Below, one piece after another: positions 1 through 8,704 of a stretch of 8,704 bases of DNA. The DNA is from a virus (lineage: Duplodnaviria; Heunggongvirae; Uroviricota; Caudoviricetes). The position numbers were made by a program, and so were the translations under genes. The DNA is taken from positions 1 through 8,704 of the IMG/VR virus record IMGVR_UViG_2609460344_000011, one strand, 5' to 3'. The notes under the pieces are model-generated. The model was not told the DNA's origin. It saw nothing but the letters and a program-made list of their open reading frames with translations, and searched no databases. Within the stretch, counting starts at the first letter, position 1, and each line of letters opens with the position of its first letter.

Positions 1-86
1 TTTCCACCCCTGTACGTCTCACCACCTATATGGTCGTGGAAAGCCTTGGTGGTGAGTTCATTGAATTCAACATAGGGGCTGTCACC

Positions 87-632
87 ATGACTACTCTCCC
101 AACCCAATCTCACCCTGAAATCACGATTATCAATGGTCGCGTTGTCACCACATCTCTTGCAGTAGCTAATTACTTTACTAAACGGCATGAGCGGGTTTTA
201 GATAGAATTAGAAACCTCGAATGTTCCGCTGAATTTACTGAACACAATTTTGTGTTAAGTGAATACACCGACGCATCAGGCCGCAAACTCCCTTGTTACC
301 AAATCACCCGCGACGGTTTTGCGTTTCTTGCCATGGGCTTCACTGGTAAACGTGCTGCCCGGTTCAAAGAGGCATACATAAATGCCTTTAACCAGATGGA
401 AAAACTGCTTTCAAAGCCATCCACGCTGAGCGATGCCGCAGATAACGCCAGCGTGCTTTACTCCCACCTGTCGGTAATCCACAAGGTCTGGCTGCAGCAG
501 CTTTATCCCATGTTGGCAAAAGCCGAATCCCCGCTGGCTGTAAGTCTGTATGACCGCATCAACGACGCGGCGCTACTGGCCAGTCTCATAAATTTGTCGC
601 TGAACCCTTCAGAGGTAAGGGGGCGTAAATGA
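87..632 (+). CDS. Rha-family phage regulatory protein (antirepressor-like)
   Basis: ATG at 87 preceded by GGGG (75-78). The ORF is open from 30, but the N-terminus MTTLPTQSHPEITIINGRVVTTSLAVANYFTKRHERVLDRIRN fits the Rha-domain pattern recalled from memory. Stop TGA 630-632 overlaps the next ATG. Confidence 0.65.
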   Translation: MTTLPTQSHPEITIINGRVVTTSLAVANYFTKRHERVLDRIRNLECSAEFTEHNFVLSEYTDASGRKLPCYQITRDGFAFLAMGFTGKRAARFKEAYINAFNQMEKLLSKPSTLSDAADNASVLYSHLSVIHKVWLQQLYPMLAKAESPLAVSLYDRINDAALLASLINLSLNPSEVRGRK

Positions 633-853
633 TCCGGAATATTTTCAAACGGTTTACCAATCATACTTTCTGTTGTCCTCGTCCGGGTCAGTGGTACACC
701 ACGCCTGCAGGGCATGTTCTACGTGTTAGCCTGGTTGACCGTGAATGTCAGAAGGTGATTTGTGAACCGCTGGGCCGTAATTACCGCGTCAGTATGCCGC
801 TTATAGCCTTTTGCTCCGGAAAAAACATGAAGCATCTCGGAGGTGCTGCATGA
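629..853 (+). CDS. hypothetical small protein (74 aa), translationally coupled between Rha and the O-like gene
   Basis: ATG 629 overlaps the upstream stop (ATGA). Purine-rich SD-like GAGGTAAGGGGG at 611-622. Its stop TGA 851-853 overlaps the next start at 850. No recognisable domain. Confidence 0.45.
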   Translation: MIRNIFKRFTNHTFCCPRPGQWYTTPAGHVLRVSLVDRECQKVICEPLGRNYRVSMPLIAFCSGKNMKHLGGAA

Positions 854-1668
854 GTATGGAGTTGATGGTTAAAGCGATGAAAATTCGAGTGGGAAATCCA
901 TTGCGAAAACTGGTTCTGATTAAGCTGGCTGATAATGCCAGCGATCAGGGTGAGTGCTGGCCCAGCTATCAGCATATCGCTGATCAGTGCGAGATTAGCA
1001 AACGTTCTGTGATGAATCATATTGCGGCCCTCTGTGAGTCCGGGCTGGTAAAAAAAGTCACCCGGAAAGGTGAAAAAGGTAACTCAAGTAATATCTATCT
1101 CCTTCATCTGGATGGTGCAGGAGATTCACTAGGGGGTAGTGCAAATAATTCACTATCTGGTGCAGCAAATTCACCAGGTAGTGCAGGAGTTGCACCAGGG
1201 GGTAGTGCAGGAGATTCACCCAGAACCAGTCACTCTTTTGAACCAGTCAAAGAACCAGTCAATGAACCAATAGCTGTTGGTGAATCTGCTGATGAGTCTG
1301 TGCGAGTTCGTTCAAACCGACCGGAATACTCTCCGGAGTTTGAGCAGGCATGGCTGGCATACCCCAAACGTGCTGGTGGCAATTCAAAATCTGCAGCCTT
1401 CAAAGCCTGGAAAGCCCGTTTGAATGAGGGGGTAAACCCCGAAACCATGCTGGAAGGTGTGAAACGCTACGCGGGCTGGGTATCTGCGATGGGTAACAGC
1501 GGCACACAATTTGTGAAACAGGCTGTCACGTTCTTTGGTCCGGATCGTCATTTCGAAGAATCCTGGGAAGTTCCTGCGGTATCTGCAGCCAGACGCGAGG
1601 ACCCGTACTTCAAAGCCAGTTACGACAACGTGGACTACAGCCAGATCCCGGAAGGATTCAGGGGGTGA
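850..1668 (+). CDS. lambdoid replication initiator O-like protein (N-terminal HTH domain, Gly/Ser/Ala linker, C-terminal domain)
   Basis: ATG 850 with GGAGG at 838-842. N-terminal segment LRKLVLIKLADNASDQGECWPSYQHIADQCEISKRSVMNHIAALCESGLV matches the helix-turn-helix typical of phage O-type replication protein N-termini. A low-complexity linker follows, encoded by iteron-like DNA repeats. Confidence 0.65.
   Translation: MSMELMVKAMKIRVGNPLRKLVLIKLADNASDQGECWPSYQHIADQCEISKRSVMNHIAALCESGLVKKVTRKGEKGNSSNIYLLHLDGAGDSLGGSANNSLSGAANSPGSAGVAPGGSAGDSPRTSHSFEPVKEPVNEPIAVGESADESVRVRSNRPEYSPEFEQAWLAYPKRAGGNSKSAAFKAWKARLNEGVNPETMLEGVKRYAGWVSAMGNSGTQFVKQAVTFFGPDRHFEESWEVPAVSAARREDPYFKASYDNVDYSQIPEGFRG
1111..1221. 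repeat. iteron-like direct repeats inside the O-like gene (candidate replication origin)
   Basis: GTGCAGGAGATTCAC occurs at 1115-1129 and 1205-1219. GGGGGTAGTGCA occurs at 1132-1143 and 1198-1209. ATTCAC recurs at 1124, 1148, 1169 and 1214, giving a roughly 21-24 bp period. Further degenerate copies (GGTAGTGCAGGAG at 1177) lie between. Confidence 0.4.
1240..1271. repeat. short tandem repeat GAACCAGTCAA x2 plus a partial copy, encoding EPVKEPVNEP
   Basis: GAACCAGTCAA at 1240-1250 and 1252-1262, then GAACCAA at 1265-1271, immediately 3' of the iteron-like block. Confidence 0.4.
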
Positions 1669-1670
1669 TC

Positions 1671-2159
1671 ATGAGTCTTTTGAATGAAGTTCAGAAATTC
1701 ATTGAAGCCCATCCGGGGTGTACTTCCGGAGACATTGCGGATGCTTTTGCAGGTTACTCACGGCAGCGCGTTCTGCAGTCAGCAAGCAAGTTACGTCAGA
1801 GTGGGCGTGTGGCTCACCGTTGTGAAGGAGATACACGCAGACATTTCCCGCGCCTGACTGAGAGAGCACAGGAGCCGGAACCACAACCAGTTCGTGAAAC
1901 CAGACCTGTGCGCAATTTCTGTGTCGGCACTAACGACCCGCAGGTGATTTTGTGCCTGACTCGCCAGGCGGAAGAACTGGAGTCCAGGGGCTTATTCCGT
2001 CGAGCTGCAACGGTGTGGATGGAGGCATTCCGTGAAAGCCACTCCCAGCCAGAACGAAACAATTTTCTGGCGCATCGTGAGCGGTGCTTACGGAAAAGCA
2101 GCAAGCGCGCTGCATCGGGTGAAGAGTGGTATCTGTCAGGGAATTACGTGGGGGCTTAA
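1671..2159 (+). CDS. PerC-like transcriptional regulator domain protein with N-terminal winged-helix-like region
   Basis: ATG 1671 with AGGGGG at 1659-1664; the upstream stop TGA 1666-1668 lies just before it. C-terminal segment ESRGLFRRAATVWMEAFRESHSQPERNNFLAHRERCLRK fits the recalled PerC/Pch signature (GLxRRAAxxW ... RRxxC). The N-terminal half looks like a small wHTH. Confidence 0.5.
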   Translation: MSLLNEVQKFIEAHPGCTSGDIADAFAGYSRQRVLQSASKLRQSGRVAHRCEGDTRRHFPRLTERAQEPEPQPVRETRPVRNFCVGTNDPQVILCLTRQAEELESRGLFRRAATVWMEAFRESHSQPERNNFLAHRERCLRKSSKRAASGEEWYLSGNYVGA

Positions 2160-2812
2160 TGAGTAATAAATATTGCCAGGCGCTGGTGGAGCTGCGGAAC
2201 AAACCAGCCCATGAACTGAAGGAAGTGGGCGATCAGTGGCGCACGCCGGACAACATTTTCTGGGGAATTAACACCCTGTTTGGCCCGTTTGTTCTGGATC
2301 TGTTCACTGATGGTGATAACGCCAAATGTGCCGCTTATTACACTGCGGAAGACAACGCGCTGGCGCATGACTGGTCTGAACGTCTTGCGGAGCTTAAAGG
2401 TGCTGCCTTTGGTAATCCCCCGTACAGCCGCGCCAGTCAGCATGAGGGGCAATACATCACCGGCATGCGTTACATCATGAAACATGCCAGTGCCATGCGT
2501 GATAAAGGCGGGCGCTATGTTTTCCTGATCAAAGCTGCCACCAGCGAAGTGTGGTGGCCGGAAGATGCAGATCATATTGCTTTTATTCGCGGGCGTATTG
2601 GTTTTGAACTGCCTGCCTGGTTTATCCCGAAAGACGAAAAGCAGGTGCCAACAGGTGCTTTCTTCGCTGGTGCTATTGCTGTTTTCGACAAGACCTGGAA
2701 GGGACCGGCAATCAGCTACATAGGGCGCGATGAACTTGAGGCATGTGGTGAGGCGTTTCTGGCGCAGGTTCGCCAGCAGGCGGAAAAACTGGTCAGGGAG
2801 ATGGCGGCATGA
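2159..2812 (+). CDS. phage Dam-family N6-adenine DNA methyltransferase
   Basis: ATG 2159 overlaps the upstream stop TAA 2157-2159, with a G-run at 2150-2154. Contains the GNPPY catalytic-type motif (N/DPPY class) and overall resemblance to phage N-6-adenine methyltransferases. Confidence 0.75.
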   Translation: MSNKYCQALVELRNKPAHELKEVGDQWRTPDNIFWGINTLFGPFVLDLFTDGDNAKCAAYYTAEDNALAHDWSERLAELKGAAFGNPPYSRASQHEGQYITGMRYIMKHASAMRDKGGRYVFLIKAATSEVWWPEDADHIAFIRGRIGFELPAWFIPKDEKQVPTGAFFAGAIAVFDKTWKGPAISYIGRDELEACGEAFLAQVRQQAEKLVREMAA

Positions 2813-3135
2813 CGACATTAACTCAATGCCAGCAGCAGGTGCTGGATATGCTGATTTCTTATCAGAAAGAACGTGGCTTCCCGCCAACCAATCAGGAGGT
2901 GGCAACCATGCTGGGATACCGTTCGGTGAATGCAGCGGTGGAGCATCTTCGCGCACTGGAGAAAAAAGGTGTCATCACGATAAAGCGTGGCGTGGCCCGG
3001 GGTATCACTCTTCATACCGCGGTGAAGGACGACGACAGCGAGGCGGTCGGGATTATCCGCGCCCTGCTTGCCGGTGAGGCAAACGCCAGGCTGCGTGCAG
3101 CCCACTGGTTACATGAGAGGGGCCTGAAAGTATGA
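2809..3135 (+). CDS. LexA N-terminal DNA-binding domain homologue lacking the S24 peptidase domain
   Basis: ATG 2809 overlaps the upstream stop (ATGA). Residues 1-68 align without gaps to the E. coli LexA N-terminal domain as recalled: LTxxQQxVxDxI ... GxPPTxxExAxxLGxRSxNAAxEHLxALxxKGVIxI ... RGIxL. The protein ends at 108 aa with no catalytic Ser/Lys domain. Confidence 0.75.
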   Translation: MTTLTQCQQQVLDMLISYQKERGFPPTNQEVATMLGYRSVNAAVEHLRALEKKGVITIKRGVARGITLHTAVKDDDSEAVGIIRALLAGEANARLRAAHWLHERGLKV

Positions 3136-3527
3136 AGCTAATACTGCCTTTTCCGCCCAGCGTGAACACGTACTGGCGACACCCCAACAAAGGGGCGTTT
3201 GCTGGTAAGAGCCTGATAAGCGCGGCGGGGCGAAAATTCCAGAGCGCGGCGTGTGCAGCAATAGTTGAGCAGTTACGTCGTCTGCCGAAACCAACGTCGG
3301 CACCTGCTTCAGTGGAGATCGTGTTGTTTCCTCCGGATAACCGGATCCGCGATCTGGACAACTATAACAAGGCGCTGTTTGACGCCCTGACCCACGCGGG
3401 TGTGTGGGAAGACGACAGTCAGGTGAAAAGAATGCTGGTGGAGTGGGGACCGGTTATCCCGGAGGGGAAGGTCGAGATCACTATCAGTAAGTACGAAAAA
3501 GCGAGTTGCAAATTAGCAACTCGGTAA
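3132..3527 (+). CDS. rusA: RusA-family Holliday junction resolvase (crossover junction endodeoxyribonuclease)
   Basis: ATG 3132 overlaps the upstream stop (ATGA), with GAGAGGGG upstream. N-terminal LILPFPPSVNTYWR and the acidic core DLDNYNKALFDALTHAGVWEDDSQV match RusA family signatures. Confidence 0.85.
   Translation: MKLILPFPPSVNTYWRHPNKGAFAGKSLISAAGRKFQSAACAAIVEQLRRLPKPTSAPASVEIVLFPPDNRIRDLDNYNKALFDALTHAGVWEDDSQVKRMLVEWGPVIPEGKVEITISKYEKASCKLATR
3502..3523. repeat. perfect 8-bp inverted repeat CGAGTTGC-N6-GCAACTCG at the 3' end of rusA
   Basis: CGAGTTGC (3502-3509) and GCAACTCG (3516-3523) are exact reverse complements. No U-tract follows, so it is more likely an operator or RNA stem than an intrinsic terminator. 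Confidence 0.35.
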
Positions 3528-3572
3528 CGGAATTGAGCAACACCCTAAATTTGGGTATTACCTCGTTAAAGA

Positions 3573-3592
3573 TACTGTATTTATGAACAGTG
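3573..3592. promoter_or_regulatory. LexA (SOS) box, consensus CTGT-N8-ACAG
   Basis: TACTGTATTTATGAACAGTG: CTGT at 3575-3578, an AT-rich 8-nt spacer, ACAG at 3587-3590. Candidate sigma70 elements TTGATA (3598-3603)-N17-TAAGTT (3621-3626) lie immediately downstream, before the KilA-N gene start at 3690. Confidence 0.7.
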
Positions 3593-3689
3593 TATCCTTG
3601 ATAACTATTAAAAATCGCAGTAAGTTCATCCTGCATCAACGAAAAGGGAGTGCAGTCCCGCTCGTGGATAAAAATTTGTGGAGAAACCA

Positions 3690-4505
3690 ATGAATCAGTT
3701 GCTTGTAATTGATGGCGTTTCTGTGCGTCAGTACTTCGAATCTAACTACTGTCTTAACGACCTTCAGAAAGCTGCTCTTCTTGCCGCTGGTGAGAATCGC
3801 TCCTCCCGTTCGCTGGAAGTTCACGAGTTTATGCGTCGTCCTGAAACGAAGGCTCTTGTGGAATTATTGGAAGAAGAAACTACGGGAGATTCCCGTAGTA
3901 TTCCTGTCATCACCATTCAGGGGCGCAATGGTGGGACGTATGTCTGTAAAGAGCTGGTCTATGCATATGCAATGTGGATCAGCCCGGCATTCAGCTTAAA
4001 AGTGATACGTACTTTTGATGCGCTTCATAATTCATCACCAGAAGAAACCACATCCGACAAAATTAAATCCGGGGTCATTCTGCTTGAATCAGCAGCAAAG
4101 ACTCTAAATCTGTCAAACTCCTCGAAACTTGGTGCATACCAGAAATTATCAAAGGTAGCTGGTCTTCCTGAACTTATGCCGATCTATGCCATTGATGCAC
4201 CTGCTGATGCGCCAGATGGTTCAAGCCGCCCTACGCTGTCGCTGAGTGCACTGCTGAAGCAGTATGGTATCCGCCTGACGGCTAATCAGGCATATCACCA
4301 GATGGCGAAGCTGGGGATCGTTGAACAACGCGAACGATACAGCCGTACCGCGATTAACAACATCAAAAAATTCTGGTCGCTGACCGCGAAAGGCTGCATG
4401 TTCGGCAAGAACATCACCAGTCCTGCAAATCCGCGCGAGACGCAGCCGCATTTCTTCGAATCCCGATTTCCTGAGCTGTTAAAGCTGCTCGATACCGTTC
4501 ATTGA
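3690..4505 (+). CDS. KilA-N domain protein, probable SOS-controlled antirepressor-like protein
   Basis: ATG 3690 with GGAG at 3680-3683. The N-terminal 110 aa (YCLNDLQKAALL ... IQGRNGGTYVCKELVYAYAMWISPAFSLKVIRTFDAL) fit the KilA-N domain pattern. Preceded by the LexA box. Confidence 0.7.
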   Translation: MNQLLVIDGVSVRQYFESNYCLNDLQKAALLAAGENRSSRSLEVHEFMRRPETKALVELLEEETTGDSRSIPVITIQGRNGGTYVCKELVYAYAMWISPAFSLKVIRTFDALHNSSPEETTSDKIKSGVILLESAAKTLNLSNSSKLGAYQKLSKVAGLPELMPIYAIDAPADAPDGSSRPTLSLSALLKQYGIRLTANQAYHQMAKLGIVEQRERYSRTAINNIKKFWSLTAKGCMFGKNITSPANPRETQPHFFESRFPELLKLLDTVH

Positions 4506-4506
4506 G

Positions 4507-5502
4507 GTGACTGTGAGAGCACTACTGACCCCTGAAATTGCCCCGCGTATGGGGATCGTATTGTTCAGGCCAGGTTCAGAGCTGATGCCCCTGTTTATGC
4601 AGGGGCGTGTCCTGCTGGAGCCTGAGCCGGAGCGTTATTCATCTTTCGCCAGTGGTGCCGTTCCGGCGGCATCACAACCGCTGGCGGATGATCCTGCCGT
4701 TCGGGCCGTGTTCCGCCATGAGGCAGTGATCCGTCGTGCTGGTGGCGTGGAATGTCTTGAAAGCTGGTTACTTCGTGAAAAAGGCTGCCAGTGGCCTCAT
4801 TCCGGATGGCACAGCGAGAACATGACCACAATGCGACACGCTCCGGGCGCAATCCGTCTGTGCTGGCACTGCGATAACCAGCTGCGCGATCAGTTCACGG
4901 AACGGCTGGAATCAATGGCAACGGATAACTGTGCCCGCTGGGTGTTGTCTGTTGTGCGTCGGGATCTCGGTTTTGATGACAGTCACGTTGTGACAATGCC
5001 GGAACTGTGCTGGTGGCTGATTCGTAATGACCTGGCGGATGCCTTACCGGAAAGTGCAGCCCGTAAGGCACTGAGATTACCGAAGCCTGTTGTGCCGTCT
5101 GTCACCCGGGAAAGTGACCTTGTGCCTTCGGTTCCTGCCACCAGCATCATCCAGGATAAAGCGAAAAAGGTGCTGGCGCTGAAAGTGGATCCGGAGTCGC
5201 CGGAGTCTTTTATGTTACGCCCCAAACGTCGCCGCTGGGTTAATGAAAAGTACACGCGCTGGGTTAAGACGCAGCCGTGTGCATGTTGTGGAAAGCCTGC
5301 TGATGATCCCCACCACCTGATAGGCCACGGTCAGGGGGGAATGGGTACAAAAGCGCATGACCTCTTCGTGCTGCCTTTGTGCAGAAAGCATCACGACGAG
5401 CTGCATGCGGATACCGTGGCATTTGAAGAGAAGTATGGCTCCCAGCTGGAGCTGATATTTCGTTTTATCGATCGTGCGCTGGCAATAGGCGTGCTGGCCT
5501 GA
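4507..5502 (+). CDS. DUF968-family protein with C-terminal HNH-like Cys/His motif
   Basis: C-terminal CACCGKPADDPHHLIGHGQGGMGTKAHDLFVLPLCRKHHDELH resembles the DUF968 family found next to Q in E. coli prophages. The start is uncertain: GTG 4507, GTG 4513 or ATG 4549, none with a strong SD. Confidence 0.6.
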   Translation: MTVRALLTPEIAPRMGIVLFRPGSELMPLFMQGRVLLEPEPERYSSFASGAVPAASQPLADDPAVRAVFRHEAVIRRAGGVECLESWLLREKGCQWPHSGWHSENMTTMRHAPGAIRLCWHCDNQLRDQFTERLESMATDNCARWVLSVVRRDLGFDDSHVVTMPELCWWLIRNDLADALPESAARKALRLPKPVVPSVTRESDLVPSVPATSIIQDKAKKVLALKVDPESPESFMLRPKRRRWVNEKYTRWVKTQPCACCGKPADDPHHLIGHGQGGMGTKAHDLFVLPLCRKHHDELHADTVAFEEKYGSQLELIFRFIDRALAIGVLA

Positions 5503-5519
5503 TTTTGTGGAGAAAGTTG

Positions 5520-5891
5520 ATGCGTGATATTCAAATGGTTCTTGAACGTTGGGGGGCATGGGTGGCAAATAATCACGAGGATGTGGAATGGTCATCTGTT
5601 GCTGCAGGTTTTAAGGGATTAATTCCTTCGAAAGTAAAATCCCGCCCGCAATGTAGCGATGACGATGGCCTGATCATTAGCTCTGCGATGACAGTTCTTA
5701 AGAAAAAGGAACCGTATCAATACGAATTACTGGAAATGTATTATGTGTATGGGGTTACATTACGGGTGTTGGGGGTAAAACTGGGGATATCACTTAATCA
5801 GGTTGTTATCAGACTGCAGAAAGCTGAAGGGTTTATTGACGGTTGTCTGGCAATGTTGGGGGTATCTTTAGAAATTGATTGTTACATATAG
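5520..5891 (+). CDS. Q-like late-gene antiterminator (small, about 123 aa, quuD-type)
   Basis: ATG 5520 with GGAGA at 5509-5513. The size, the position after rusA/DUF968 and before the tRNA cluster, and the N-terminal MRDIQMVLERWGAW match my recollection of small Q antiterminators of E. coli prophages. Family assignment is from memory, not a search. Confidence 0.55.
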   Translation: MRDIQMVLERWGAWVANNHEDVEWSSVAAGFKGLIPSKVKSRPQCSDDDGLIISSAMTVLKKKEPYQYELLEMYYVYGVTLRVLGVKLGISLNQVVIRLQKAEGFIDGCLAMLGVSLEIDCYI

Positions 5892-5930
5892 TAATAAATT
5901 CAATCAAAGTAAATAATCATATTTTATTAT

Positions 5931-5963
5931 AACCTCCTGATGATACCTGTTCATTGGGAGGTT
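5931..5963 (+). promoter_or_regulatory. inverted repeat AACCTCC-N19-GGAGGTT that can sequester the Shine-Dalgarno of the downstream gene
   Basis: AACCTCC (5931-5937) is the exact reverse complement of GGAGGTT (5957-5963). The right arm contains the SD (GGGAGG 5956-5961) of the ATG at 5967. Candidate -10 hexamers TATTAT/TATAAC at 5925-5933. Confidence 0.35.
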
Positions 5964-5966
5964 ATT

Positions 5967-6584
5967 ATGGATAAAAATGTAGAGCATGTATTAGTTGATG
6001 CAATTGAAAATAAGCAATCTTTAACAGTCGTTTACTTAGGAGGGAGCCAGCCCGGAACATTAAGGAATATTTCTCCGATTAGTATAAATGGGGATAAATT
6101 GCGGGCAAGATGCCATAGTTCTGGAGCAGTAAAGGTTTTCAATCTTGGGAAAATACAGTTACCCAGTGACTCCTGCGCGGTATCTATGCACTATGGAGAT
6201 TTAGAAGTTAAAGCTTATGAGACGATGCAGAGCGTAAATGACAACTTTCATGCCCTTTATCCTGAAGGACGATGGGGTGTTGATTTTAATGAGCATCGCT
6301 TTGCTTTATTTGATTTTTTTAAAAACGGGAAACGAAAAAAAACGGCATTTATGGCAATTGAGTTCAGGGAAAGAGATGAAGAGAAAATAATAACAGGTGT
6401 AACAATTGATATTGGTATATCTGGAACAGTGATTTCTGAGAAGTCCCGAATCCCAAAAAGACGACCATGGGTAGTGGTTGGTCCCGAACACGGAGAATAC
6501 AGTACTTATTCAACTTTGGACAAGGCTGCTACAGCGTTTTTTGAGAGGCTTTCGTTGATAGCATCCGGCCTGGAAGATAATTGA
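5967..6584 (+). CDS. hypothetical protein (205 aa), AT-rich accessory gene of unknown function
   Basis: ATG 5967 with a perfect GGGAGG SD at 5956-5961; an alternative ATG at 5940 has no SD. No family recognised. Markedly AT-rich relative to the upstream genes (by eye). Hand count: 11 of 12 Arg codons are AGA/AGG/CGA/CGG and 6 of 14 Ile codons are ATA. Confidence 0.6.
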   Translation: MDKNVEHVLVDAIENKQSLTVVYLGGSQPGTLRNISPISINGDKLRARCHSSGAVKVFNLGKIQLPSDSCAVSMHYGDLEVKAYETMQSVNDNFHALYPEGRWGVDFNEHRFALFDFFKNGKRKKTAFMAIEFRERDEEKIITGVTIDIGISGTVISEKSRIPKRRPWVVVGPEHGEYSTYSTLDKAATAFFERLSLIASGLEDN

Positions 6585-6716
6585 TTTTATGTTTGGTATT
6601 CAGAGTTCGCCGTGCTTAAGAAAGTCAAGATTCTAAAAATACTGAATGAGCTACTTGTGTTATAACAAAAATGCTATTAGTGTGTTAAGAGTGGTTACTT
6701 CGCCACACAACTTAAC

Positions 6717-6738
6717 CCCGCCACTGAGCGGGTTTTTT
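6717..6738 (+). terminator. intrinsic terminator
   Basis: Stem CCCGC (6717-6721) / GCGGG (6728-6732), loop CACTGA, followed by T6 (6733-6738). Confidence 0.6.
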
Positions 6739-6788
6739 GTACCTGTAAACTTGGTGCAGTACAGTAAACACGCTGGTGGTCGTGAATA

Positions 6789-6815
6789 CTGGCTTTTTAT
6801 CTTGCTGGCTTTTTA
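6789..6815. repeat. 11-bp perfect direct repeat CTGGCTTTTTA x2 (candidate regulator-binding site)
   Basis: CTGGCTTTTTA at 6789-6799 and 6805-6815, a 16-bp centre-to-centre spacing, about 50-75 bp upstream of the ATG at 6863. Confidence 0.35.
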
Positions 6816-6862
6816 GACAAGAGTTATTGGTATGTCACGTTAACCGGAAAGGGTAAAAAGAC

Positions 6863-7060
6863 ATGCTGAAACAGCAGGATATGACAGAAACCGCCAGAGT
6901 TGTGTTTGATGAATTAAGCGTTACCGAACCGGCGACAGTCGGGGAGATTGCGCAGAATACTTACCTTTCACGCGAACGCTGCCAGTTAATACTGACCCAG
7001 CTTGTTATGGCGGGTCTGGCAGACTATCAGTGCGGTTGTTACAGACGCCTTCAGTCCTGA
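6863..7060 (+). CDS. hypothetical small protein (65 aa), possible winged-helix (PapI/FaeA-like) DNA-binding protein
   Basis: ATG 6863 with a weak purine-rich stretch GGAAAGGG upstream. A helix-turn-helix-like segment ATVGEIAQNTYLSRERCQLILTQLVMAGL. Bracketed by intrinsic terminators. Assignment is tentative. Confidence 0.4.
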   Translation: MLKQQDMTETARVVFDELSVTEPATVGEIAQNTYLSRERCQLILTQLVMAGLADYQCGCYRRLQS

Positions 7061-7073
7061 AGGCTTTTTATTT
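7047..7073 (+). terminator. intrinsic terminator overlapping the stop codon of the 65-aa ORF
   Basis: Stem GCCTTCA (7047-7053) / TGAAGGC (7058-7064), loop GTCC, followed by TTTTTATTT (7065-7073). Confidence 0.55.
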
Positions 7074-7194
7074 GTGGTGAATGGGCGGCTGGTGGGGGGG
7101 CGACACCTGTCAGTCCTTTGCTTATGTGTTGATGATAATTTACCTTTTGGGGCTATAATTGAGCTAACCAATTGCTAATGAAAGTAAAATTATA

Positions 7195-7908
7195 ATGGCT
7201 GTTGTCTGTTCAGTTATCATGGTTTGCTCCCCAATTAATATTTTTCTTGAAAAGGATACGTTGTCACTTAAGCCAGGCTCAGTTGTTCTGGCCACCAAAT
7301 GCATCAGGGAGCTTTTCCTTATGCATTATGGCAAAGTTAAAATTGTCGATATAAGCGAATCCGTCGTAAGTCAATATCTGGAAAGTCAGCATAAGCTGAC
7401 GAGGACTCGTCTGACTGACATTCCGCTTTACCTGTTGCTGGAACCCAACAATCCTGCGTTGGCTGCGGCTTTAATTACCAGCCAGGGATTTTCCGGAGAG
7501 GCCACGGATATGTTTCTTATGATGGCCTGCCTGTCTCTGTTTGAAACAGATGAACGGATGTCATTGTTTTTAAGTGGATGTTTATCCAGCATAAGTGCCA
7601 AAGTCAGGGCGATAATTCAGACAGATATATCAGCAAGCTGGACGCTTGGTGCGATTGCTCTACAGTTGCATATGAGTGAGAGTTTGTTAAAGACAAAACT
7701 GAAAAATGAAGGGGGCATGTTCAGTCGCTTGTTGCTGGAAGAGCGGATGCGTGTTGCTGTAAATATGTTATGTTCCCGGCATGGATATGGACAGGCTATA
7801 GCAGAAAAATGCGGTTATTCAAGCAGGTCCTACTTTATTTCTGTATTTCACCGCTATTATGGCTTCCCGCCAGACAGATATGTATCCAGGCAAGGGCTTG
7901 ATTATTGA
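7195..7908 (+). CDS. AraC-family transcriptional regulator (AppY/GadX/YdeO/Rns-like)
   Basis: C-terminal AraC-type HTH (WTLGAIALQLHMSESLLKTKLKNEGGMFSRLLLEERMRVAVNMLCSRHGYGQAIAEKCGYSSRSYFISVFHRYYGFPP). N-terminus MAVVCSVIMVC resembles the AppY-like subgroup as recalled. AT-rich, with 5 AGG, 1 AGA and 5 ATA codons by hand count. No clear SD; an alternative start is ATG 7219. Confidence 0.7.
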   Translation: MAVVCSVIMVCSPINIFLEKDTLSLKPGSVVLATKCIRELFLMHYGKVKIVDISESVVSQYLESQHKLTRTRLTDIPLYLLLEPNNPALAAALITSQGFSGEATDMFLMMACLSLFETDERMSLFLSGCLSSISAKVRAIIQTDISASWTLGAIALQLHMSESLLKTKLKNEGGMFSRLLLEERMRVAVNMLCSRHGYGQAIAEKCGYSSRSYFISVFHRYYGFPPDRYVSRQGLDY

Positions 7909-7936
7909 TTTTCATCTGATTATTATTTTTTGGCTC

Positions 7937-8012
7937 GGCCCTTTAGCTCAGTGGTGAGAGCGAGCGACTCATAATCGCCAGGTCGCTGGTTCAAATCCAG
8001 CAAGGGCCACCA
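7937..8012 (+). tRNA. tRNA with anticodon CAU, most likely tRNA-Ile2 (lysidine, reads AUA); generic annotation would be tRNA-Met
   Basis: Hand-folded cloverleaf: acceptor GGCCCTT/AAGGGCC, D-arm GCTC/GAGC, anticodon loop CTCATAA, T-arm GCTGG/CCAGC with TTCAAAT loop, encoded CCA. Close to E. coli ileX as recalled. Confidence 0.8.
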
Positions 8013-8019
8013 TCACATA

Positions 8020-8096
8020 CCGCCATTAGCTCATCAGGAAAGAGCGCCAGCCTTCGAAGCTGGCTGCGCGGGGTTCAAGTCCCCGATGGCGGTCCA
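8020..8096 (+). tRNA. tRNA-Arg, anticodon UCG (reads CGA/CGG)
   Basis: Acceptor CCGCCAT/ATGGCGG, D-arm GCTC/GAGC, anticodon stem CCAGC/GCTGG with loop CTTCGAA, T-arm CGGGG/CCCCG with TTCAAGT loop, encoded CCA. The C1-G72 first pair is unusual but the fold is complete. Confidence 0.75.
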
Positions 8097-8109
8097 TTAT
8101 CTGCATCAT

Positions 8110-8186
8110 GCGTTGTTAGCTCAGCCGGACAGAGCAATTGCCTTCTAAGCAATCGGTCACTGGTTCGAATCCAGTACAACGCGCCA
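8110..8186 (+). tRNA. tRNA-Arg, anticodon UCU (reads AGA/AGG), argU-like
   Basis: Acceptor GCGTTGT/ACAACGC, D-arm GCTC/GAGC, anticodon stem ATTGC/GCAAT with loop CTTCTAA, T-arm ACTGG/CCAGT with TTCGAAT loop, encoded CCA. Confidence 0.8.
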
Positions 8187-8200
8187 CACTTATTTTCCCT

Positions 8201-8227
8201 GGCTCGCTTTTGCGGGCCTTTTTTTTT
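8201..8227 (+). terminator. intrinsic terminator downstream of the tRNA cluster
   Basis: Stem GGCTCGC (8201-8207) / GCGGGCC (8212-8218) with one G-U pair, loop TTTT, followed by T9 (8219-8227). Confidence 0.65.
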
Positions 8228-8439
8228 AAATGTCTCACAATTCAGGCGGTTGACTGTTGTCTGGTTTGCGGGGAGTTTGTTAAAAGAAACTGGCATGGTG
8301 AATCCCCCTGTGCGGAGGGGCAATCAGCAACTGGTGTTTTGTCACCGACCCTTATCCTTTCTGTGCGGGTTCAGGTGCTGATACTGAACTCACCGGGAGG
8401 CACCCGGCACCATGCAATGGCACATAGCGCCACTCTCCA

Positions 8440-8463
8440 GCCCCTCTCCGGAGGGGCTTTCTT
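8440..8463 (+). terminator. GC-rich hairpin with weak T-rich tail (possible attenuator or terminator)
   Basis: Stem GCCCCTC (8440-8446) / GAGGGGC (8451-8457), loop TCCG, followed by TTTCTT. Confidence 0.35.
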
Positions 8464-8469
8464 ATGGAC

Positions 8470-8497
8470 AAAAAAATCCCGCGCTGGGAGACGCGGG
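8470..8497 (-). terminator. candidate minus-strand intrinsic terminator
   Basis: Stem CCCGCG (8478-8483) / CGCGGG (8492-8497) with an 8-nt loop, preceded on the + strand by A7 (8470-8476). On the minus strand this reads hairpin then U7. Confidence 0.35.
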
Positions 8498-8691
8498 CGG
8501 CAAGGAATAAACAACAAAACGTGAAGTAATATTTCAGTTGGCGAATAATATCCGACAGTAATCACTCTGCGCAATAGCGCGGCCTTTTTCGTATTGCGGG
8601 CTGTTGTCTATCTTCTGCCATTATCCTGTAACTTCCGGACTTCAGCCCGCTCCTCATTTTACTCACAATATTATCCAGGCCGGGAGGATTC

Positions 8692-8704
8692 ATGGCATTT
8701 AAAC
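8692..8704 (+). CDS. 5' end of an unidentified gene running out of the window (begins MAFK)
   Basis: ATG 8692 preceded by GGGAGG at 8681-8686 with 5-nt spacing. Only 4 codons are visible. Confidence 0.3.

Follow-up and report, generated by a model that had tools for sequence, protein, structure and literature searches.

The DNA analysed here, called the window throughout, is the 8,704-nucleotide (nt) stretch at positions 1 to 8,704 of the IMG/VR virus record IMGVR_UViG_2609460344_000011 (Caudoviricetes). It matches a prophage of Escherichia coli S88 and many other extraintestinal pathogenic E. coli (ExPEC) strains, with 99.8% identity over 616 bases around the interval under study, and it covers the junction between the antiterminator gene Q and the late genes of a lambdoid prophage that resembles Shiga toxin (Stx) phages and lacks stx. 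The interval itself, from 6739 to 7073, contains an exact 11-bp direct repeat and an open reading frame (ORF) of 65 amino acids (aa) with a helix-turn-helix (HTH)-like segment. A scan finds intrinsic terminators on either side, and an AraC-family gene follows 134 nt downstream of the ORF (Table 1). These four features had been named in a preliminary description, and all of them are present, the repeat being locally unique. That description further proposed a small regulatory unit in which the AraC-like protein, the 65-aa protein or both act on the repeat. The comparisons below point instead, with somewhat better than even confidence, to the first gene slot of a lambdoid late operon and not to an AraC-centred unit.

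A winged-helix gene behind the probable late promoter

The ORF has a winged-helix fold and is a real gene, as its substitution pattern, its match to a phage protein family and its abundance show. In particular, 59 of 65 columns at codon position 3 vary among 19 orthologues, compared to 31 and 27 at positions 1 and 2, and the median ratio of nonsynonymous to synonymous rates (dN/dS) is 0.075, indicating strong purifying selection. Residues 1-64 match positions 35-98 of the 111 in the profile of phrog_331, a family of unknown function (E=6e-37). The family is narrow (89 representatives among 1.8 billion), and its 295 database relatives come from Escherichia, Shigella, Salmonella, Klebsiella, Citrobacter and Buttiauxella. 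Within E. coli it is common: the ORF and its upstream region occur in about 3000 genomes. At least 1000 contigs encode the identical protein, most often under the name 'TrmB family transcriptional regulator' or 'hypothetical'. The ATG has an AAGGG Shine-Dalgarno-like motif ahead of it, ending 9 nt upstream.

The fold assignment rests on an AlphaFold2 model with a confident three-helix core (pLDDT 84), which can be superposed on the HTH cores of solved winged-helix domains. The structural neighbours are mostly DNA-binding regulators, and SelB and Zalpha, which bind RNA or Z-form nucleic acid, are also among the matches. Profile searches pointed to the same type of fold below threshold: Pfam TrmB (PF01978) reached 17.8 bits (E=0.003) against a gathering cut-off of 25.6, MarR_2, HTH_20, Rrf2 and DprA_WH also remained below their Pfam cut-offs, and every sub-threshold hit was a winged-helix family. 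NCBIfam yielded no family for the ORF. Two segments, the N-terminus MLKQxDMTE and helix 3 (RCQLILTQLxMAGL), are invariant even between subfamilies with about 50% identity, and it is through this third helix that the protein would bind nucleic acid. One part of the model weighs against a canonical winged helix, as residues 53-60, where the wing is expected, form a low-confidence helix in it (pLDDT dropping from 77 to 51); the DYQxGCYKRL sequence at this position could form a hairpin.

Full-length TrmB regulators carry a C-terminal effector (sugar-binding) domain after the winged-helix domain, and the 65-aa protein consists of a single domain. Small winged-helix regulators of the PapI/PefI type differ from it in another way, as no sequence similarity was detected and the locus has no Lrp/GATC phase-variation context. 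Overall, the gene is an ordinary, common, annotated but uncharacterised small phage regulator. Several minor features accompany its coding sequence. A small hairpin, UGCUG-AAA-CAGCA, starts at the second base of the start codon (6864-6876), and the minus strand of the same segment scores as a terminator-like site; nucleotide conservation across subfamilies is unusually high in the first 8 codons. One example of decay comes from Mangrovibacter yixingensis (locus L024, 3001-3069), where a frame disruption cuts the ORF to 22 codons and leaves the upstream element intact.

The position of the gene relative to the late promoter was assigned by homology. The GTTAAGAGTGGTTAC block after Q is common to phage 1720a-02, phage P27 and the Sakai prophage Sp5, and it marks a probable pR' that the consensus promoter scan did not call. 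In Sp5, the pR' start lies 258 nt upstream of the 3′ end of the small RNA StxS (PMC7547250); back-calculation places this start at GATAAGAG, which corresponds, by homology to Sp5 only, to positions 6687-6690 of the window. Moreover, the bases that directly precede terminator 1 vary according to the Q family, which makes this leader segment Q-type-specific. In phages whose Q belongs to PF06530 (the window, 1720a-02, P27 and Sakai Sp5), it reads TAnnnT followed by GTTAAGAGTGGTTAC; in SfV, whose Q belongs to PF03589 (the Q-lambda family), the lambda-type CAACGATGGG motif takes the same position instead. The CAACGATGGG motif also occurs at the genome loci L008, L012, L019 and L022, the Q family being confirmed for SfV only. 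The site thus has the make-up of a Q-dependent late leader, lying downstream of Q with Q-family-specific sequence between promoter and terminator.

Because of this Q-dependent upstream sequence and the mapping of the Sp5 start onto 6687-6690, terminator 1 is, as far as homology can tell, the first terminator of the pR' leader. It is present, with changes in its stem, in nearly all aligned related loci, and four terminator-like sites lie within 6400-7400 where 1.2 would be expected. The same comparison with Sp5 also supplies an argument against this assignment: the homologous Sakai hairpin (locus L034, 972-994) is partly read through by pR' transcripts, which suggests that terminator 1 may be leaky and, consequently, that either terminator may be the functional tR'. 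Read-through RNA from pR' would carry the ORF and stop at terminator 2 after about 380 nt. Further, the region 6655-6738 may yield a short RNA in lysogens similar to 6S, StxS or IsrK. Known pR'-tR' late leaders (lambda 6S RNA, StxS, and IsrK of Gifsy-1) have their likeness here in terminator 1 and its upstream sequence, and the window's pR' leader is directly homologous to the 5′ part of StxS in Sakai Sp5. The two differ in what follows, as Sp5 has a 258-nt leader that runs to a second terminator without an ORF, whereas the window has a conserved protein gene between its terminators.

Table 1. Coordinates of predicted and annotated features from Q to the AraC-family gene (window numbering).
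Feature	Position	Strand	Details
Antiterminator Q	5505-5891		PF06530 (Q21/Q933W family)
WYL-like 214-aa gene, phrog_8498	5940-6584		inserted between Q and the pR' region
Probable pR'	6655-6683	+	-35 TTGTGT 6655-6660, 17-nt spacer, -10 TAGTGT 6678-6683; by homology
Short pR' leader, ~50 nt (Q21-family qut region)	6687-6738	+	ends at terminator 1
Intrinsic terminator 1 (tR'-type)	6717-6738	+	CCCGCCACTGAGCGGG stem 6717-6732 plus TTTTTT; found by scan
Chi site GCTGGTGG	6772-6779	+	semi-conserved among related loci
Direct repeat copy 1	6789-6799	+	CTGGCTTTTTA; lineage-specific
Direct repeat copy 2	6805-6815	+	CTGGCTTTTTA; covers last 3 nt of the -35-like hexamer and spacer
Promoter-like element	6801-6838	+	CTTGCTG-N11-(C/A)AGAGTTAT(T/C)(G/T)GT(A/G)TGTCA
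Hexamers of the element	6802-6807, 6825-6830	+	-35 TTGCTG, 17 nt, -10 TATTGG; predicted start A6837
65-aa winged-helix gene, phrog_331	6863-7060	+	ATG start; PGAP name 'TrmB family transcriptional regulator'
Intrinsic terminator 2	7047-7069	+	stem 7047-7064 plus TTTTTATTT; 3′ arm holds the stop codon TGA 7058-7060
Decayed methyltransferase-leader remnant	7074-7134	+	first hairpin, Chi 7088-7095; ends at recombination breakpoint
Own promoter of the AraC/YdeO-like gene	7132-7159	+	ATGATA-16-TATAAT, 10/12 matches; neighbour, outside the ORF cassette
AraC-family gene, phrog_1450	7195-7908	+	HTH_AraC match; YdeO/GadX models below cut-offs

The direct repeat and the element it overlaps

The repeat is mildly unusual in statistical terms. 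The two exact copies of CTGGCTTTTTA are the only ones in the window even when one mismatch is allowed, and of 200 shuffles, 2 gave two or more matches to the pattern. Among windows simulated with a Markov-1 model, 3.7% contain an exact 11-mer that recurs within 30 nt, and three further such repeats are present in the window, all within coding sequence. Direct repeats are frequent binding sites of AraC-family proteins, and the copies span roughly -48 to -22 counted from the transcription start predicted for the ORF, a plausible position for a regulator. These properties, namely an exact and locally unique repeat at a suitable position, are what recommends it as an operator for the AraC-like protein, the 65-aa protein or both, acting as one unit with the AraC gene.

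This interpretation is nevertheless very improbable once the repeat is followed across related loci. In a 26-locus alignment, SfV, mEp460 and a Stx2c phage have CTGACTTTTTA as copy 1, phiSTEC1575 has CTGACCTTTTA and P27 has CGAGGCTTTCA, and in other genera copy 1 is unrecognisable; it differs in most close relatives and is absent outside Escherichia. A pattern search of viral contigs for repeat variants gave 2 loci, and BLAST identity bands in E. coli genomes were used instead. A 71-nt query across the repeat matched 1204 E. coli records, 188 of them at 99% identity or above and 981 at 95-99%; among four loci sampled over these bands, two have the exact repeat, and both of those from the 95-99% band read CTGACTTTTTA in copy 1. 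Copy 2 retains across genera only its first 3-4 bases (CTG/CTGG), its remainder falling in the variable 11-nt spacer of the element.

The repeat also does not track the regulator: phiSTEC1575 has the AraC-like gene and an imperfect repeat, and strain Ecol_AZ146 (locus L030) has the exact 11/11 repeat upstream of a methyltransferase-linked copy of the ORF with no AraC gene. In addition, the AraC gene has its own near-consensus promoter behind the ORF's terminator, and the usual neighbour of the ORF is a methyltransferase gene. The repeat is a lineage-specific near-duplication, one base away from the CTGACTTTTTA variant of both sampled close relatives. Of the regulatory unit first proposed, the winged-helix gene, the terminators and a conserved cis-element overlapped by copy 2 are retained; the repeat operator and the link to AraC are not.

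A second candidate function for the repeat was also discarded. The Q21 binding element consists of two 8-bp subsites in direct repeat; it is located at the promoter, next to a sigma-dependent pause element and on its upstream side (10.1101/651190). The repeat in the window lies about 50 nt downstream of terminator 1 and persists, in a 10/11 form, after the Q-lambda-type Q of SfV.

The element overlapped by copy 2 is conserved much more widely. In short form it is CTTGCTG-N11-CAGAGTTAT..GTATGTCA, and 30 of 33 loci, those of Providencia, Morganella and Hafnia phages among them, have a single copy whose distance from the ATG is constant. Its internal spacing is invariant in the aligned loci; in the window it lies 25-60 nt upstream of the ATG, and it has been kept although the synonymous sites of the ORF are saturated between genera. 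By its layout the element looks like a promoter, and it may double as an operator. Two observations count against a promoter: its match to the sigma-70 consensus is poor (TATTGG/TATCTG, with G at the last position), and the promoter scan did not call it, so that it could be an operator or another DNA site.

An alternative built on these weaknesses is that the gene has no promoter of its own and is simply the first Q-dependent late gene, with the element acting as an operator or another protein site, recognised for instance by the 65-aa protein or a host factor, or as a processing or pause signal. This is unlikely, though a serious contender. The -10-like hexamer indeed lacks its final T, about 8 conserved bases (CCAGAG..) in the would-be spacer exceed what a plain promoter needs, and across two protein subfamilies the recognition helix and the DNA element, both invariant, have been conserved jointly. 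The overall pattern remains that of a promoter, however: a conserved TTG block is followed by 11 variable nt, then by a conserved block whose closing CA stands 7 nt past the hexamer, and lastly by a variable 5′ untranslated region (UTR). Nor is there conserved RNA structure at the element, as RNAalifold over the 5′ UTR of the ORF gave -0.13 kcal/mol and 0 compensatory pairs.

Other identities for the element were considered. The consensus sequences of sigma-54, sigma-E, sigma-32, LexA, CRP, DnaA and IHF did not fit by eye, and a minus-strand promoter with GTGACA was rejected on account of a non-conserved would-be -10 region. The window has no second CMAGAGTTA site; what looks like a second copy ahead of the methyltransferase gene at some loci lacks conservation. 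Comparison with morons, genes with their own promoter and terminator and a sporadic distribution, gave a mixed result. The terminator is present and the promoter-like element is conserved but weak and predicted only, and the gene, far from sporadic, is a stable methyltransferase partner from Escherichia to Providencia.

The methyltransferase partner, its leader and the AraC replacement

The neighbour of the ORF was identified at 30 related loci, and at 27 of them an adenine methyltransferase gene lies downstream; the exceptions are two AraC-type loci and one broken ORF. The methyltransferase gene, with a DPPY motif, begins 148-155 nt downstream of the ORF in 23 of 25 loci. The same order is found in phage 1720a-02, in three E. 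coli genomes and in Providencia, Morganella and Hafnia phages, and the SfV-type ORF-methyltransferase junction matches 1057 complete E. coli genomes. The methyltransferase belongs to family PF01555 and is 81% identical to the enzyme of phage 1720a-02. The latter is very similar to M.EcoGII, a non-specific adenine methyltransferase whose expression is toxic and which stays silent in lysogens (PMC5778455). Protein gene, leader and methyltransferase gene lie together after pR' and upstream of stx2 in many Stx2a, 2c, 2d, 2e and 2k phages.

By comparison with these loci, the AraC junction is a derived replacement of leader and methyltransferase in this prophage lineage. Up to about 7130 the module is common to the window and phiSTEC1575; both then switch to the AraC cassette, and both diverge from all methyltransferase loci after GCTTATGTGTTGATG. 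The leader remnant ahead of this breakpoint has a folding z-score of -0.2, compared to -2.87 for the intact leader, which is equalled by 1 of 200 shuffles. Only the protein gene and the decayed first hairpin of the module survive in the window. The ORF-AraC junction is itself found in 687 complete E. coli genomes, all without the methyltransferase and with the gene intact. This retention counts against methyltransferase control as the sole function, and it implies that the protein must have, or must have gained, another role.

The AraC-like neighbour, which is YdeO/GadX-like, is probably a regulator of the PatE/PsrA/PsrB class that rewires host acid resistance. PatE, PsrA and PsrB act on the host acid-resistance promoters of hdeA and gadE (PMC10877973). 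The likeness concerns the neighbouring gene only, as a prophage-borne YdeO/GadX-like AraC regulator adjoining late-region tRNAs. An inverted repeat (7132-7147 and 7181-7196) spans its promoter and start codon.

The intact leader between the ORF and the methyltransferase gene is a conserved, hairpin-rich non-coding region of about 150 nt (L009 3193-3343, with equivalents in L003-L026 and L035-L037). A four-helix model pairs 96.7% of cells, compared to 23-47% with slid partners, and includes 7 pairs with compensatory changes; 0 of 500 shuffles reached the observed values. An alternative long-range helix, formed by GGUCACAAGC and GCUUACUGAUC, the region just upstream of the methyltransferase AUG, is 94% paired. 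The middle segment AAGCG thus has two possible partners, an upstream CGCU and the CGCUU just upstream of the AUG, and in the Providencia and Morganella phages the three segments vary in concert. The methyltransferase AUG has no evident Shine-Dalgarno sequence. The alternative pairing may be a switch.

No known RNA family accounts for these structures at the thresholds applied. Rfam 15 gave nothing at gathering threshold in 6580-7200 or in ten related loci, tRNAs apart. Relaxed searches returned sub-threshold matches only, consisting of partial 3′-end matches over the L009 terminator and a long, weak minus-strand match to STnc130 at 6706-6828 that scored 21.8 bits, the cut-off being 55. The RfaH ops element was considered for the leader and did not fit by eye.

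Several sequence features of the leader were noted alongside its structure. At loci L012, L014-L017, L021, L025 and L026, the leader contains a perfect 16-bp palindrome, GCTTTAGCGCTAAAGC, some 45-60 nt before the methyltransferase ATG. Its centre is AACGTT in L017 and GTGCAC in the Providencia, Morganella and Hafnia phages; because the centre is palindromic in all three versions, the palindrome could serve as a dimer operator in addition to forming an RNA hairpin. GATC stands directly upstream of the methyltransferase ATG in all examined loci except Hafnia phage yong2. The Hafnia phage keeps the leader hairpin and has lost its Chi site.

Terminator 2 overlaps the end of the coding sequence, and its stop-codon hairpin is kept with compensatory changes in all loci, the T-run being confined to the Escherichia group. 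A stop codon held in the 3′ arm of such a hairpin would suit an ORF that is merely a translated leader, in which the arrival of ribosomes at the stop codon would affect termination or the expression of what follows, and the peptide itself would not matter. The low dN/dS, the confident fold and a helix 3 that is invariant across subfamilies of about 50% identity leave this explanation scarcely credible.

The arrangement of a small gene before a toxic modification enzyme has precedents. The nearest in function comes from Mu and Mu-like phages, where the small protein Com activates translation of mom or of non-specific adenine methyltransferases by way of a structured leader (PMC3299994, PMC6483171). 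The com-mom operon of Mu and the com-hia5 and com-hin1523 operons share with the present locus a small ORF just upstream of a late, host-toxic adenine-modifying enzyme, and the FluMu and Hia enzyme is a non-specific adenine methyltransferase, like the partner at the ancestral form of the locus. Also shared with the ancestral locus are a leader structured around the enzyme's start codon and expression that is held off in lysogens. Com itself is different, being an RNA-binding four-cysteine zinc finger of 39-62 aa, whereas the 65-aa protein is a winged helix; the family alignment shows no four-cysteine motif, the protein has neither a Pfam hit nor sequence similarity to Com and is not its homologue, and the resemblance is in gene arrangement only. 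The window's phage is moreover lambdoid and Q-controlled, unlike Mu, and has no methyltransferase.

Restriction-modification controller (C) proteins offer a second comparison, as small HTH proteins that adjoin a DNA methyltransferase and have conserved DNA elements upstream of their own gene; the GCTTTAGCGCTAAAGC palindrome upstream of the methyltransferase in relatives adds to the likeness. C proteins are, in contrast, XRE-type HTH dimers linked to an endonuclease gene. At the present locus the protein is a winged helix, the endonuclease is absent, and no C-box-like repeat is conserved.

The 65-aa protein might act on RNA or protein and not as a DNA-binding transcription factor, either as a Com-like translational activator that opens the leader or as a modulator of RNA polymerase or Q. 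The leader is structured, its long-range helix covers the region just upstream of an AUG that lacks an evident Shine-Dalgarno sequence, Com provides the precedent, and the RNA- or Z-form-binding winged helices of SelB and Zalpha are among the structural matches. Set against this, DNA-binding regulators make up most of the structural neighbours, destruction of the leader has left the gene in place, and a Com-like zinc-finger motif is missing. Action on RNA or protein is thus rather unlikely.

The favoured account, held with the same measured confidence as the placement in the late operon, combines that first slot with a methyltransferase-partner gene, a later AraC replacement and an accidental repeat. 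Under it, the gene would be transcribed from pR' by Q-modified polymerase in lytic growth. Low-level transcription in lysogens is probable, from the gene's own weak promoter, by read-through of terminator 1 or both, and it would end at terminator 2. The protein's ancestral role was most likely the control of the adjacent toxic modification gene, in the style of a controller protein or of Mu Com. In this prophage the methyltransferase-control job would have been orphaned and the gene retained.

A further proposal, advanced tentatively and with limited confidence, is that the protein, the stop-codon hairpin and the ~150-nt leader together form an undescribed module that keeps the methyltransferase silent in lysogens and releases it late in lytic growth. 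Such a module would be a lambdoid, non-homologous counterpart of Mu com-mom. If so, its position between pR' and stx2 could shape Shiga toxin transcription.

The framing of the repeat as an operator shared with AraC does not hold, and little would depend on it. The more interesting lead is the protein-leader-methyltransferase module of the relatives, upstream of stx2 in many Stx2 phages. The gene is very common and unstudied, and it comes first after the late-gene switch in many lambda-like prophages, including Shiga toxin phages. Its constant partner is a non-specific adenine methylase, a laboratory tool that is toxic to cells. The function of the protein and leader would explain the timing of genome-wide self-methylation for restriction escape, and would also tell whether toxin output is affected by the stretch from the late promoter to stx2.

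The surrounding prophage

The gene order of the window was obtained from the S88 annotation and from ORF and Pfam scans. It begins with Rha, an O-like replication protein and a PerC-like protein, and continues with an N6-adenine methylase, a LexA-like protein, RusA, KilA-N and DUF968 before antiterminator Q. The slot between Q and pR' (5892-6654) is variable: it holds the WYL-like gene in the window, a GIY-YIG nuclease in P27 and unrelated minus-strand genes in other E. coli strains, and it is empty in phage 1720a-02. The slot looks like an insertion hot spot for accessory or defence-type genes. PADLOC made no defence-system assignment.

The window is also rich in Chi sites. GCTGGTGG occurs 9 times in 8.7 kb, compared to 0.28 expected, with 7 of the sites on the plus strand (1372, 2182, 2538(-), 3434, 4738, 5009, 5138(-), 6772 and 7088). 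The last two flank the 65-aa gene. This count places the prophage in the Chi-rich lambdoid class described in PMC12315714.

Within the O-like replication gene, iteron-like repeats at 1115-1262 probably mark the phage replication origin. The iteron unit, GTGCAGGAG(A/T)T(T/G)CAC..., recurs at intervals of ~24 nt (in a 39-nt register, 3 copies were detected), and AGAACCAGTCA is present three times. The protein encoded at 1665-2159 (164 aa) has a PerC domain (PF06069, E=2.5e-8), and is thus a Pch/PerC-like regulator in an ExPEC-type prophage.

Downstream of the 65-aa ORF, the AraC-family gene is followed by tRNA-Met, tRNA-Arg and tRNA-Arg genes and by the small RNA STnc100 (143 bits), with the lysis genes further on. 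The three tRNA genes and STnc100, which occupy 7937-8186 and 8264-8469, comprise a tRNA with a CAT anticodon (annotated ileZ in Sakai), Arg-TCG, Arg-TCT and then the small RNA, and STnc100 here takes up the position that stxAB has in Stx phages.

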